Shown: positions 24,139-63,489 of the stretch, in pieces
Layout of the letters: the number at the start of each line of letters is the position of its first letter
Position numbering within the stretch: position 1 is the stretch's first letter
Origin: Escherichia coli
GTDB taxonomy: Bacteria > Pseudomonadota > Gammaproteobacteria > Enterobacterales > Enterobacteriaceae
Assembly: GCF_044324875.1 (NCBI RefSeq)
Contig: NZ_CP172185.1
DNA: 64,000 bases
Reading direction: 5' to 3' (one strand)
Program-made: the position numbers and the translations under genes
The notes under the pieces: model-generated
Database searches by the model: none
What the model saw: the letters and a program-made list of their open reading frames with translations, nothing else
Told to the model about the DNA's origin: nothing

Positions 24139-25482
24139 TTAACCTCTCACAAGCGTAATCGCGTTTTCTGTCACATCGCTGACCATGCCATCAATACTGG
24201 CATGAATGGGGGCACCTAATGTGCCGTGTGGAATTTGACCTACACATTGCCCATGAACGACGCGATCGCCTTTTTGTACACACGCAATTGCGCTGGCACC
24301 GATGTGCTGGCGTAACAATAACGTCACTTTTTCGGTCTGAGGCACCTGTTCAGACAATGGCGCATCCTGATACCACGGGGTTAAGCCCAGTCTGGTTACC
24401 AGCCGTTTTACGGGAATCAGTCGATAATTTGCCATGGGATCTGCAGGATTTAAGGTACCTTCGTAACGGAGATTTTGTGCGCGTAATTCCTGCTTAAGCA
24501 GGCGGTTTATGCGCATTGGTGAAATTCCTACCGGACAGGCGACGCTGGCGCAGACGTTGCACTCCGAACAGGTGAGCGCCGTCAGTAACAGTTGTGGCGT
24601 AGCGAGCTGTTGGTAGTTAACCGCACGTACTAATAAATGGGGTGCCAGTTCGTGACCGATTAAATGACGTGGGCAGAGATCGGTACACAAGCGGCATTGC
24701 TCACAAACAGTTTTCGCGACGGCAAGTACGCTGCGGTCATTCTGCATTCGACATTGGATCAGTGAATGAGAGTTGGGTAAAACCAGCAAGCCGCCAGTGG
24801 TTTTGCTGACTGGTGTGTCGAGCGATGTGATCAAACTGCCCATCATCGGTCCGCCATTGATAAAACCAGGAGCATCCACTGTTGCGCCGCCCGCCAGCGC
24901 CAGGACTTCACGTAAAGACATGCCGATGGGGACGGTTACCGTTATTGGTTTCGCCACTGCACCATTAACGGTGAGTGTGCGGCGCGTCACTGGATACTGT
25001 TGCTCGACGGCTCTGGCAATATTAAGTACGGTTTGAACATTATTGACCACCACACCGACGCTAACGGGTAATGCAGCGGGTGGAACGCGGCGACCAGTTG
25101 CCATCCAGATGGTCAGCACTTCGTCTCCTGCGGGGTAAACATCGGGCAAAATATGCAGGCGGATATCCGGTGGTAACAGTGGTGTGAGTGCGTTTATTGC
25201 CAGTTGATATTTCTCTTTCAGCGCGATGATTCCGCTGCTGGCCCCGGTGGCTTTCATCGCATAGTGAACACCGCGAAGCAGGCGGCTGGCTTGCTGCGCC
25301 ATTAACTGTTGATCCACTTTCAACATGGGTTCGCATTCCGCCGCATTCACCAGGAAAGTGTCAACACGCGCTTGTAGCTTAATATGGGTTGGAAAACCTG
25401 CGCCGCCAGCACCCACGACACCAGCTGCCTGTACTCGCTCGCGGATGGTCTGGTCGTCGCAGGAGGTTAACTCGACGTTCAT
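24139..25482 (-). CDS. pduS: cobalamin reductase (RnfC-like flavoprotein with 4Fe-4S clusters)
   Basis: 447-aa ORF with a GAGGAGFP nucleotide motif and two CxxCxxCxxxCP ferredoxin motifs. Confidence 0.85.
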
Positions 25483-26591
25483 AACAACTCCTCGAGCAGT
25501 TCTGCAATAGCGGTGGCATCAGCCGCACGCGGGTTGGTACGCAACGTTGCATCCGCCAGTGCCGCCTGAACCATATCTGGTATGCGTATTGACCATTCTG
25601 CTTTTTTTTCTTTCAGCACATTGGTAAGAGTCGGTAGCTTACAGGTTGTTTTAAGCTGTTCAATATGTTGAATAAGTGTATTCAGGCTGGCGGTGTCATT
25701 GGCGTTGTCCGGGCATAAATGGCACGTTTTCGCCAGCCGGGCGTAGCGTTTGGCAGCGCGCGGATCGCCAGCATTAAAGCGGATAACCGCCGTGAGCAGG
25801 AGCGCATTCGCCAGGCCGTGTGGCAGATGAAACTGTCCGCCGAGTTGATGAGCAATTGCATGGTTTAATCCCAGTCCAGCCTGGCTAAAGGCCATTCCTG
25901 CAAGTGTCGATGCATTATGCATTTTGCCACGGGTAGCGAGACAATCGCCTTTCTTCACTGCAGTGGGCAGGTATTGAAAAACAATTTGCACGGCTTTTTC
26001 GACCAGTGCATCCGTGAAGTCGCTGGCGCGGGGAGAAACATAAGCTTCAAGCGCATGGGTTAAAACATCCATCCCGGTATTGGCCGTTATCGCCGGTGGC
26101 ACGCTGACGACCAAAGATGGATCAAGGATCGCGATATCCGGATAAAGTGCATTATCGAAAAGGGGATATTTAATCCCTTTCTCAGGATCGCTGATGACAC
26201 AAGCACTGGTCACTTCGGAACCGGTACCGCTGGTGGTGGGAATGGCTACGCAGGTTTCAATTTCAATGCCACACTGGCGACCGAACCAGACAATTGCTTT
26301 TGCGGCGTCCAGGGCAGAACCGCCGCCAAAACCGATAACTACATCCGGGCGTAAAGTCTGCATTTGCGCAATGCCTTTCACCACGGTCTGGATAGTTGGG
26401 TCGGGCGTTATTTCGCTAAAAATACTGAGACGATTACTGTCGGGCAGCGCCTGATGCAACGTGTCAATAAGTGGTGAGCGTGCCAGAAAGGCATCGCAAA
26501 TAATCCAGATGTGTCTATGAGAGAAACGGCTAAGTACCTTGAGACTTCCTGGTCCGCTGTATAAACGCGTCTGCAGTGAAAAAGTATTCAT
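25479..26591 (-). CDS. pduQ: iron-containing alcohol dehydrogenase (1-propanol dehydrogenase)
   Basis: 370-aa ORF with the Fe-ADH GGGS motif (GFGGGSALDAAKA). Confidence 0.85.
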   Translation of the reverse strand: MNTFSLQTRLYSGPGSLKVLSRFSHRHIWIICDAFLARSPLIDTLHQALPDSNRLSIFSEITPDPTIQTVVKGIAQMQTLRPDVVIGFGGGSALDAAKAIVWFGRQCGIEIETCVAIPTTSGTGSEVTSACVISDPEKGIKYPLFDNALYPDIAILDPSLVVSVPPAITANTGMDVLTHALEAYVSPRASDFTDALVEKAVQIVFQYLPTAVKKGDCLATRGKMHNASTLAGMAFSQAGLGLNHAIAHQLGGQFHLPHGLANALLLTAVIRFNAGDPRAAKRYARLAKTCHLCPDNANDTASLNTLIQHIEQLKTTCKLPTLTNVLKEKKAEWSIRIPDMVQAALADATLRTNPRAADATAIAELLEELL

Positions 26592-26601
26592 TTCCGTTTC
26601 T

Positions 26602-27987
26602 CTAGCGAATTGAAAAGCCGCTGGTTAACACGCAGCGTCGTGAGCGGGCAAAAGTCCGTGCTGACGTTGTCCCTTCTCCGGTCGGTGTTGCAATGGTAAA
26701 GGTCGTAAAGCCTTCGCCGCCGACGCCAATACCCGCCCAGGAGGGGCCGTTTTTGACAAAGATTGAGGTTTGCATAACGCGTGCGGCAAGGTTGAGCCGT
26801 GAGACGTTCTGCGAGTGCATAATTGCCGTGTGGTGCAAGCCGTCTTCCACTTTCAGCGCCAGGGTGAGAGCGCTATCAAAATCGTTGACCTTCACAATGG
26901 GCAGCATTGGCATCAGTTGTTCACAAGTAACCCAACTATCATTGGCGTCGACAACAGCAATCAGTAGGCGCGGCGCTTTTGCGGGCAAAGGGAGGCCTGC
27001 CGCTTCCAGCAAGGCTGATGGGCTTTTCCCAACCAGTTTTTTGTTGGCGCTACCGTCTGGCAGGCAAATTGCACGCAATTTCTCCGTTTGCTCATAGTTA
27101 AGAAGAAGCGCGCCAAAACTTTGCATCTGCTGAATTAAATAATCTGCCACTGATGCCACGACAATCAGGCTTTTTTCAGCAATACACGGCAGGTTGTAAT
27201 CAAATGAAGCGCCGTTGATGATGTCCTCGGCGGCTTTCACAATATCCGCCGTTTCATCGACGATGCACGGAGGGTTACCCGCTCCGGCACCAATCACTTT
27301 CTTGCCACTTTTCATTCCCATGGCGACGATCCCCGGACCGCCGGTAATCGCCAGAACGCTGATTTTAGGGTGCGCCATCATCTGTTCGGTAGCAGCAAAG
27401 GTCGGTTCAGATACGGTAACGATCAGGTTATGAATGCCACTACAACGAAACGCGATGTCTTCGATTGTGGTAATCAGTTTTAACGAAACGTATTTGGCTC
27501 CCGGGTGTGGACTGAAGTAGACGCTATTACCTGCTGCCAGCATGCTGATGCTGTTGTTAATGATGGTTTCCGTGGGGTTGGTGCTTGGCGTGACCGAGCC
27601 AATAACCCCAAACGGGGAGTATTCAAACAAAACCATGCCACCATCACCGGTTAGTGCAGTGGTGGTTAAATCTTCAATTCCTGGCGTGTTATCGAGTGCC
27701 GCTTTGTTTTTTAGGTACTTATCTTCTTTATTTCCCATCCCCGTTTCTTTGGCGCTTTCTTCTGCCAGTTCGGTCAGGCGGGGTATTAATTCTTCGCGAA
27801 TGGCGCTGATAATGGCGCTACGGGTTTTAAGCGGGCACTGTTGAAAGCGTAAAAAGGCCTGGTGTGCTGCGCAGACCGCTTCATCAACAGTCTGGAAAAT
27901 AGCGTTTCTTTGCGCTCGTTGCGTAGCGGGGGCAAGCTGCTCACGCAGAATATTGCGGATCAGTGTTTCTAATTCAGAGTTATTCAT
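26602..27987 (-). CDS. pduP: CoA-acylating propionaldehyde dehydrogenase
   Basis: 461-aa aldehyde dehydrogenase-family ORF with an N-terminal encapsulation-like helix; position in the pdu cluster. Confidence 0.85.
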   Translation of the reverse strand: MNNSELETLIRNILREQLAPATQRAQRNAIFQTVDEAVCAAHQAFLRFQQCPLKTRSAIISAIREELIPRLTELAEESAKETGMGNKEDKYLKNKAALDNTPGIEDLTTTALTGDGGMVLFEYSPFGVIGSVTPSTNPTETIINNSISMLAAGNSVYFSPHPGAKYVSLKLITTIEDIAFRCSGIHNLIVTVSEPTFAATEQMMAHPKISVLAITGGPGIVAMGMKSGKKVIGAGAGNPPCIVDETADIVKAAEDIINGASFDYNLPCIAEKSLIVVASVADYLIQQMQSFGALLLNYEQTEKLRAICLPDGSANKKLVGKSPSALLEAAGLPLPAKAPRLLIAVVDANDSWVTCEQLMPMLPIVKVNDFDSALTLALKVEDGLHHTAIMHSQNVSRLNLAARVMQTSIFVKNGPSWAGIGVGGEGFTTFTIATPTGEGTTSARTFARSRRCVLTSGFSIR

Positions 27988-28991
27988 TGGTTTACTCCCA
28001 CGTTAATTGCCGCCATTGCGCTTTGGGCAATATCCATGTCTTGTTCAACGCTACCACCGCTGATGCCAAGCCCCCCGAGCAATATTCCGTCACGCCAGAG
28101 GGGGAAGCCGCCACCAAAGGTGACGACTTTGCCTTGCATATGGCTTTCGAGCCCATAAAGCGGCGCGCCGGGTTGCACGGTATCAGCAAGCTTGTGGGTT
28201 GCTGTTTTCATCGCCACGGCGGTCCAGGCTTTTTTCGGTGCCAGTTCACTGCTGACCAACAGGGCATCAGGCATCCGCCAGGTAACACTTTCTGTTCCGT
28301 TGGCATCAACAATGCTGATGACAACGGGAATATGCAGTTCATCCGCGCGCATTGCCGCACTACGAATGAGCTGGTGAAGATCCTGAAATGTGAGCGGCAT
28401 TGTGCGTTCCTTCAATGCTGGTGTGTGGTTGGCTTCGTGATAACGTTTTGTGATTTCCTGAATCATCAGGTTTTGATGAGCAACGTTGTCTTCCACTCGG
28501 GCGAGGGCATACAGGCAATCGGAAAGTCGGTTGATATAGTGCAGCAAAACATTCCGGACGTTGGTTTCCGTTGTCAGTTCAACCAGACGTCTTTCAGCCC
28601 GTCGAGCCACTGTGCGGGCGAAATGCATGTGGCTTGCGGCTTCAGATCGACCAGGCAGAATGAAGCTGTGAACTGGGGGGACGGCGTTCATTGCGCTATC
28701 GATCGCGTTTTCCAGCGCAGCAATTTCTTCCGTACTGATGTAACGCTGCTTCGCTGACGGCTGTTCGCTTTCACTCGCGAGTTCGGCGCTAAACCAAAAT
28801 ATCTGTTGTTGAATGGCTTCCAGTAAGATGCGATGGCTTTCGATGGCGGTGGCGCAATAACACAGACTGAGTGTCGCGTTCAGTTCATCCAGCGTGCCAT
28901 AGGTTTCGACACGTAGATGAGTTTTGCTGACGCGCTGTCCGGTAAATAAAGACGTACTTCCTGAATCACCTGTTCGGGTATAAATTGCCAT
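27984..28991 (-). CDS. pduO: ATP:cob(I)alamin adenosyltransferase (PduO-type) with C-terminal DUF336 domain
   Basis: 335-aa ORF MAIYTRTGDSGSTSLFTGQRVSKTHLRVETYGTLDELNA... Confidence 0.88.
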   Translation of the reverse strand: MAIYTRTGDSGSTSLFTGQRVSKTHLRVETYGTLDELNATLSLCYCATAIESHRILLEAIQQQIFWFSAELASESEQPSAKQRYISTEEIAALENAIDSAMNAVPPVHSFILPGRSEAASHMHFARTVARRAERRLVELTTETNVRNVLLHYINRLSDCLYALARVEDNVAHQNLMIQEITKRYHEANHTPALKERTMPLTFQDLHQLIRSAAMRADELHIPVVISIVDANGTESVTWRMPDALLVSSELAPKKAWTAVAMKTATHKLADTVQPGAPLYGLESHMQGKVVTFGGGFPLWRDGILLGGLGISGGSVEQDMDIAQSAMAAINVGVNQ

Positions 28992-44179: not shown

Positions 44180-44234
44180 GAGCGTTGGTAATTAGAAAGC
44201 AAAAAGCCTGCTAGAAAGCAGGCTTTTTTGAATT

Positions 44235-44310: not shown

Positions 44311-44564
44311 ATCGTGTGAACGGGGCGCATATTAATGGCAGTGCATGGTGATGTCAAAGGGTGAAATGCATTTTTTTGTTTGTTTGCTGTCAATTTCAAC
44401 AAAGTGGTGAGCTTTCAATCTTATTGGTAATGAACCATCGTGGTGCATACCCTCCTTTTATGGGGCAGGGGAACGCGACAGCTGATAAAAAGAGCCAATG
44501 ACGAACCTATCATAATCTCTTATTTGACAGTTGGTTAGCTTGTACATCAACGCCAAAATAAAAC

Positions 44565-44580
44565 TGGCAAGCATCTTGCA
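44565..44580 (+). promoter_or_regulatory. sigma54 (-24/-12) promoter of nac
   Basis: tGGcaagcatcttGCa has the GG-N10-GC spacing of the TGGCAC-N5-TTGCA consensus, about 55 bp upstream of the nac ATG. Confidence 0.65.
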
Positions 44581-44635
44581 ATCTGGTTGTAAGTAATGGC
44601 GGCACTTGGGCCGATTCTTATAAACCGGAGGCAAC

Positions 44636-45553
44636 ATGAACTTCAGACGCCTGAAATACTTCGTAAAAATTGTAGATATTGGTAGCCTGACCCAGGCTGC
44701 TGAAGTATTGCATATCGCACAACCAGCGCTCAGTCAGCAGGTTGCCACACTGGAAGGTGAGTTAAATCAACAGCTTTTGATTCGCACAAAACGGGGCGTT
44801 ACGCCAACTGACGCCGGAAAAATTCTCTATACCCATGCGCGGGCCATTTTACGTCAGTGTGAGCAGGCCCAACTGGCGGTGCATAACGTTGGTCAGGCAT
44901 TATCGGGGCAAGTCTCGATTGGCTTTGCGCCAGGAACCGCTGCGTCATCCATCACCATGCCCTTATTACAGGCGGTTCGCGCTGAATTCCCGGAGGTCGT
45001 TATCTATCTTCATGAAAATAGCGGTGCAGTGCTTAACGAAAAACTGATAAATCACCAACTCGATATGGCGGTGATTTATGAGCATTCCCCTGTGGCTGGT
45101 GTATCCAGTCAGGCTTTACTGAAAGAAGATCTTTTTCTGGTAGGAACTCAAGATTGCCCGGGGCAAAGCGTTGATGTTAATGCTATTGCGCAAATGAACC
45201 TCTTTCTCCCCAGTGATTACAGTGCTATTAGACTTCGTGTTGATGAGGCTTTTTCCCTACGGCGACTCACGGCAAAAGTCATTGGTGAAATTGAGTCTAT
45301 TGCCACGCTTACCGCAGCGATTGCCAGCGGCATGGGCGTTGCAGTATTACCCGAATCGGCCGCGCGTTCGTTATGTGGCGCAGTAAATGGGTGGATGTCA
45401 CGCATTACCACTCCTTCCATGAGTCTCTCTTTGTCATTAAATTTACCCGCCAGAGCGAACTTATCGCCACAGGCACAGGCAGTGAAAGAGTTGTTAATGT
45501 CAGTGATGAGTTCTCCAGTGATGGAAAAAAGGCAGTGGCAATTGGTGAGCTAA
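44636..45553 (+). CDS. nac: nitrogen assimilation control protein (LysR family)
   Basis: 305-aa ORF MNFRRLKYFVKIVDIGSLTQAAEVLHIAQPALSQQV... Confidence 0.9.
   Translation: MNFRRLKYFVKIVDIGSLTQAAEVLHIAQPALSQQVATLEGELNQQLLIRTKRGVTPTDAGKILYTHARAILRQCEQAQLAVHNVGQALSGQVSIGFAPGTAASSITMPLLQAVRAEFPEVVIYLHENSGAVLNEKLINHQLDMAVIYEHSPVAGVSSQALLKEDLFLVGTQDCPGQSVDVNAIAQMNLFLPSDYSAIRLRVDEAFSLRRLTAKVIGEIESIATLTAAIASGMGVAVLPESAARSLCGAVNGWMSRITTPSMSLSLSLNLPARANLSPQAQAVKELLMSVMSSPVMEKRQWQLVS

Positions 45554-54873: not shown

Positions 54874-63489
<8,616 letters not shown>

Follow-up and report, generated by a model that had tools for sequence, protein, structure and literature searches.

The NtrC-activated, sigma-54-dependent promoter of nac in an Escherichia coli chromosome and its conservation across enterobacterial nac loci

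The sequence at positions 44564–44580, plus strand, of a 64,000-nucleotide stretch of Escherichia coli DNA (the window) is almost certainly the NtrC-activated, sigma-54-dependent promoter of nac (nacp). This promoter is already known; descriptions of it go back to the 1990s, and several genome-wide studies have re-confirmed it. Since nac relays the nitrogen-starvation signal of sigma-54 and NtrC to many sigma-70 promoters, the promoter is a key node. The value of the present analysis is confirmation, in that a real regulatory element had been called correctly from raw sequence, together with comparative data in the form of a footprint of the whole nac control region over about 20 genera; the analysis does not advance any open question. 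Sequence elements, statistics, geometry and conservation were read from the window and from related nac loci, and the occupancy by sigma-54 and NtrC and the dependence on rpoN and ntrC are taken from the literature on strain K-12.

The genes of the region lie in the order of the E. coli chromosome, cobU-cobS-cobT-ldtA, a tRNA-Asn gene on the minus strand (asnV), nac, cbl, a further tRNA-Asn gene and yeeO. The features of the nac control region are as follows.

44329–44357, minus strand: divergent sigma-70 promoter of the tRNA-Asn gene (asnV), TTGACA-17-TAATAT, with a GC-rich discriminator
44384–44402, no strand assigned: conserved palindrome, TTGCTGTCAATTTCAACAA; TTGCTGACAATTTCAGCAA in other genera
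44431–44447, no strand assigned: NtrC site 1 (strong), TGAACCATCGTGGTGCA, centre at about −152, a near-match to the consensus
44451–44467, no strand assigned: putative NtrC site 2 (weak), centre at about −132, 20 bp from site 1, right half only
44509–44523, no strand assigned: predicted Nac-type (LysR) box, ATCATAATCTCTTAT, centre at about −75, between the enhancer and the promoter
44564–44580, plus strand: nac sigma-54 −24/−12 core promoter, CTGGCAAGCATCTTGCA, recognized by its sequence, weight-matrix score, identity to K-12 and to ChIP-seq motif OS19, and conservation
44591, plus strand: predicted nac transcription start (+1), placed by sigma-54 geometry
44591–44635, plus strand: nac leader, 45 nt, with the Shine-Dalgarno sequence GGAGG at 44627–44631
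44636–45553, plus strand: nac coding sequence, 305 residues, LysR-type regulator, from the open reading frame and the RefSeq annotation of the matching region

The first-pass annotation had flagged 16 bases at 44565–44580 on the plus strand (TGGCAAGCATCTTGCA, also written tggcaagcatcttgca) as a candidate sigma-54 promoter for nac, with the invariant GG and GC dinucleotides at the correct spacing, about 55 bp upstream of the nac start. The doublets are read directly in the sequence, GG at 44566–44567 and GC at 44578–44579, one helical turn apart, and 55 bp do separate the end of the motif (44580) from the nac ATG (44636). Compared with the consensus TGGCAC-N5-TTGCW, the core has the canonical spacing and 10 of the 11 consensus bases, the sixth base being A and not C. 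Matches to this consensus with at most one mismatch are not enriched in the window, where six were found against 3.82 expected, a number reached by 18 of 100 shuffled sequences.

A position weight matrix was built without nac, from the other 41 intergenic sites that ChIP-seq had assigned to sigma-54 in E. coli K-12 (PMC4591121, Table 1). With this matrix the nac core scores 17.5 bits, which is the highest of the 127,968 positions on both strands of the window and exceeds the scores of 71% of the training sites (range 8.6–21.4 bits, median 16.0). A shuffled 64-kb window is expected to hold about 0.195 sites as good as this one, and 18% of shuffled windows do contain one; scaled by arithmetic to the 325-bp intergenic region and the correct strand, the chance expectation is about 5e-4 sites. 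Taken alone, the consensus match is suggestive; position, partner sites and conservation together lift the nac core far above chance.

Some other matches in the window deserve mention. The runner-up sigma-54 matrix matches at 27057–27073 (plus strand, 16.6 bits) and 24545–24561 (plus strand, 14.9 bits) are in antisense orientation within pduP and pduS. Intragenic sites that do bind sigma-54 are described in PMC4591121. Five runner-up sequences, including these two, were sought in the published ChIP-seq tables and none is present there. As antisense intragenic sequences (27057 and 24545), with none of the five in the tables, the runners-up were rejected as peers of the nac site. The propanediol-utilization (pdu) island adjoins the cob genes, with minus-strand genes at 24139–28991; among 5,426 complete E. 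coli genomes only 645 have it, and K-12 is without it. Two near-identical consensus-like matches, TGGCAATCCAGTTGCT and TGGCAATCCCGTTGCT, are found about 3.9 kb apart at 56584–56599 (minus strand) and 60477–60492 (plus strand), and this pair may be part of an inverted duplicated sequence.

Upstream of the core, NtrC site 1 differs by a single mismatch from TGCACCA-N3-TGGTGCA. It is the sole match with no more than one mismatch in the 64-kb window, no such match arose in 100 shuffles, and it fits the NtrC motif obtained by ChIP-exo, GCaCcaaaAtgGtGC (PMC9853098). The putative site 2 has a good right half, TGGGGCA at 44461–44467, and a left half that is degenerate in E. coli; its assignment to NtrC is suggested by this half-site and its placement. 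The two sites are located about 100–135 bp upstream of the motif, site 1 strong and the putative site 2 weak. The nitrogen-limitation control with which the first-pass annotation had found the motif consistent is borne out by an NtrC site upstream, by published NtrC occupancy in K-12 and by the placing of nac among the genes that NtrC regulates directly (PMC9853098), just as its candidate sigma-54 promoter agrees with the top rank of the core in the matrix scan of the window and with the identity of the 17-mer to the K-12 nac promoter, for which ChIP-seq, SELEX and rpoN-deletion data are published.

In K-12, the sigma-54 ChIP-seq site OS19 is CTGGCAAGCATCTTGCA, with nac as the downstream gene, a distance of 45 and a fold-above-threshold of 24 (PMC4591121; Bonocora et al. 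2015); the same report relays its class C, experimentally confirmed in EcoCyc, and took the nac promoter as a positive control for RNA induction upon nitrogen limitation. In another study aaacTGGCAAGCATCTTGCAATctgg, at −71 to −54, is among 18 known sigma-54 promoters, and deletion of rpoN lowered nac RNA 4.2-fold (PMC2831329). For NtrC, a ChIP-seq peak designated nac-cbl was observed in vivo at 59.6-fold (PMC4066584). Genomic SELEX in vitro gave peaks in the nac/asnV spacer, 52% for the RpoN holoenzyme, 50% for NtrC and 86% for both together (PMC8743547), and nac was found to be up-regulated by NtrC (PMC9853098).

The start of transcription is predicted by placing +1 at 12 nt past the C of the −12 GC, that is, 19 bp downstream of the motif centre (rule of PMC4591121). 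The resulting position, 44591, leaves 45 bp to the nac start, and matches the distance of 45 given for K-12 (PMC4591121). No sigma-70-like promoter was found on the plus strand between 44150 and 44700. The open reading frame downstream carries the RefSeq name nitrogen assimilation transcriptional regulator NAC, as in more than 5,400 E. coli genomes.

Conservation was examined at 80 loci from about 20 enterobacterial genera, found by a Nac protein scan of a genome collection and including Escherichia, Citrobacter, Enterobacter, Lelliottia, Kluyvera, Kosakonia, Klebsiella, Raoultella, Leclercia, Siccibacter and Phytobacter; for some counts the window was added as the 81st sequence. At all 80 loci the best sigma-54 matrix site within 400 bp upstream of nac scores between 14.5 and 18.7 bits (median 17.5), as compared with matrix maxima of 8.7 bits inside nac and 6.9 bits downstream in control regions of equal size. 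Among the 20 distinct 17-mers at these loci, TGGCA (positions 2–6) and TTGCA (positions 13–17) are invariant, and there is free variation at four of the six positions of the spacer. The distance from the core motif to the ATG is 53–59 bp at 78 of the 80 loci, and the predicted leader is 43–49 nt long in 79 of the 81 sequences.

The enhancer is conserved as well. An NtrC site with at most two mismatches occurs upstream of nac at 54 of 80 loci, versus none of 160 control regions. Of 81 sequences, 71 have site 1 centred between −150 and −153, two at −140 or −141 and seven at −130 or −131. These shifts, about 10.5 bp in Pseudocitrobacter and about 21 bp in the Kluyvera-type loci, amount to about one and two helical turns, so that the helical phase of the enhancer relative to the core promoter is preserved. 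In an alignment of 20 genera with a mean column identity of 62%, the promoter, enhancer and box elements stand out as islands of conservation. A perfect TGGGGCA is present as the site 2 half in 67 of 81 sequences; in 68 of 74 its distance to site 1 is 20 bp, and it is near-invariant in the alignment. At position 44462 this strain has the consensus form TGGGGCA, as opposed to TAGGGCA in K-12 MG1655; through this G/A variant, the NtrC threshold for nac induction might differ between strains.

Between the enhancer and the core, the predicted Nac-type box departs at one position (C for A) from the Nac consensus ATA-N9-TAT (PMC10540941), a pattern low in information content; the motif reported for Nac by ChIP-exo is ATAagnaaaanttAT (PMC9853098). 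An AT[ACT]-N9-TAT box centred at −74 to −76 is found in 59 of 81 sequences and forms a conserved block in the 20-genus alignment. In the K. aerogenes nac promoter, a repressor is bound in the interval that separates the activators from the core promoter (PMC4740811), and the −75 box is presumed to be the site of nac autorepression in E. coli, judging from its sequence and placement. The enhancer is about 21 bp closer to the core in the Kluyvera-type loci (L037, L048–L050, L060, L061 and L064) and about 10.5 bp closer in the Pseudocitrobacter loci (L053 and L055), and in both groups the deletion takes out the −75 box. Several Citrobacter loci are also without it. The lineages without the box may have lost nac autorepression.

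The leader itself showed no convincing structural conservation. RNAalifold found no consensus RNA structure in the nac leader, and the E. coli nac leader folds no better than shuffled sequences (z = 0.31). A short stem can be drawn by hand at 44601–44618 of the window (alignment columns 12–16 and 25–29), GCCAG...CTGGC in most genera and CGGC...GCCG in E. coli; for this stem of 5 bp, 73% of cells show pairing, versus 27–37% for controls slid along the alignment, and its covariation is weak. In 35 of the 81 sequences, the 14 nt after the −12 element hold a run rich in C and T, mostly ACTCCTCC, just upstream of the predicted +1; carriers include L034, L041, L045–L049, L065 and L072–L074, and the E. 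coli sequences and the window do not have it. The run is complementary to the nac Shine-Dalgarno sequence GGAGG and would occur only in read-through transcripts. It may resemble the anti-Shine-Dalgarno insulation that one report describes for sigma-54 promoters (bioRxiv 10.1101/086108).

The sequence elements and the K-12 literature suggest the following mechanism. Sigma-54 RNA polymerase would sit on the −24 GG and −12 GC elements (44564–44580) as a stable closed complex, unable to start unaided. Upon nitrogen limitation, phosphorylated NtrC would bind the enhancer about 130–150 bp upstream, oligomerizing on the strong palindrome at 44431–44447 and, aided by the weak site, recruiting additional dimers. 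By looping of the DNA, NtrC would then contact the polymerase, and ATP hydrolysis would open the promoter, with transcription from about 44591 giving a 45-nt leader followed by nac. Nac bound at the ATC-N9-TAT box near −75 would probably interfere with the loop and thereby dampen its own synthesis.

Three other explanations of the site were weighed. One is that the sequence is a functionless chance match to the sigma-54 consensus. The abundance of consensus matches with at most one mismatch in the window, six versus 3.8 expected, is what this explanation would lead one to expect, as is the finding of a site of equal or higher score in 18% of shuffled windows. However, the nac site is the best of the window and is in the right place and orientation, its core bases do not change at 80 loci of about 20 genera in which spacer and flanks have diverged, a unique NtrC site is paired with it at a conserved, phase-locked distance, and sigma-54 occupancy of the identical sequence is published; the conservation and the published ChIP data in effect refute a chance match, which is given almost no credence. 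It is also very improbable that sigma-54 binds here silently and that nac is driven by an unrecognized sigma-70 promoter or by read-through from ldtA. Many of the 135 sigma-54 binding sites found in one study may indeed never yield productive transcription (PMC4591121), but the 4.2-fold drop of nac RNA in the rpoN deletion (PMC2831329), the increase under nitrogen limitation of RNA downstream of the site (PMC4591121) and its dependence on NtrC (PMC9853098) all speak for a productive promoter. In addition, no sigma-70-like promoter was found on the plus strand between the tRNA gene and nac, and ldtA is separated from nac by a strong hairpin terminator at 44201–44228 and by the oppositely oriented tRNA gene.

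The remaining explanation takes the dyad GCAAG-CAT-CTTGC for a minus-strand terminator with a small hairpin (stem 44579–44567, followed by CAGTTTTATT), as flagged by a terminator scan. The stem is just 5 bp long, however, and no minus-strand gene ends there; a partial dyad GCA...TGC is inherent in the sigma-54 consensus, and the spacer changes of other genera (ATTCATA, AGCAAA, AAGTTA) break the extra pairs. This candidate was rejected on the grounds that the dyad belongs to the consensus and nothing ends at the site, and its probability is negligible. Even jointly the three explanations are highly improbable, and the site is read here as the NtrC-activated, sigma-54-dependent promoter of nac, a reading that none of the data contradict.

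The same intergenic region holds elements of the divergent tRNA-Asn gene. The centre of the palindrome at 44384–44402 lies exactly 82 bp from the 5' end of tRNA-Asn at 71 of 72 loci, and its distance to NtrC site 1 varies from 40 to 53 bp; a related G-N13-C element is present at the same place upstream of the two other tRNA-Asn genes of the window. The palindrome was therefore rejected as a third NtrC site or nac element, being in register with the tRNA and not with the enhancer and recurring at other tRNA-Asn genes. As far as its sequence and position indicate, the palindrome probably serves the asnV promoter as a Fis-type upstream site (at about −70). A functional coupling of the nac enhancer and the divergent asnV promoter is unlikely; the idea comes from this Fis-like palindrome, which is locked to the tRNA promoter and, in every genus examined, is only 40–53 bp away from NtrC site 1. 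If it were true, Fis binding and bending, or supercoiling from heavy divergent tRNA transcription, could let nac induction respond to growth rate in addition to nitrogen status. On the other side of the tRNA gene, between its 3' end and ldtA, the hairpin at 44201–44228 has a 12-bp stem flanked by A and T runs and is likely to be a bidirectional terminator that would insulate nac from ldtA read-through.

The control region described here can be compared with several known systems. With the K-12 nac promoter (nacp; Muse & Bender 1998) it shares an identical 17-mer, NtrC site 1 and Nac-type box, as well as the 45 bp from the predicted start to the ATG and the neighbours asnV and cbl. Eight differences from K-12 are found in the 325-bp spacer; among them are the weak half-site base (TAGGGCA in K-12) and, immediately upstream of NtrC site 1, an indel of 1 bp. 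K. pneumoniae ATCC 13883 (L078) has the same sigma-54 core, an NtrC site at −152, TGGGGCA 20 bp downstream of it and ATC-N9-TAT at −75. It differs in the core spacer (AGCAAA versus AGCATC in E. coli), in its NtrC site 1, which is TGCACCGTTGTAGTGCG, and in the left half of site 2, GTACCCC, which is better preserved than that of E. coli. For K. aerogenes nac, Feng, Goss, Bender and Ninfa reportedly described in 1995 one high-affinity and one low-affinity NtrC site, activation dependent on the face of the helix, and repression by Nac from between the enhancer and the promoter.

The promoters glnAp2 and glnK, listed with nac as known sigma-54 promoters, have the same arrangement of a −24/−12 core, upstream NtrC sites and looping. 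The nac promoter differs from them in having TGGCAA instead of TGGCAC and one strong NtrC site only. Both glnK and nac fire only once NtrC exceeds a threshold (PMC3870243), so that nac is a late, starvation-level promoter. The combination of one strong and one weak NtrC site with TGGCAA in place of TGGCAC fits its later firing than glnAp2 (PMC3870243).
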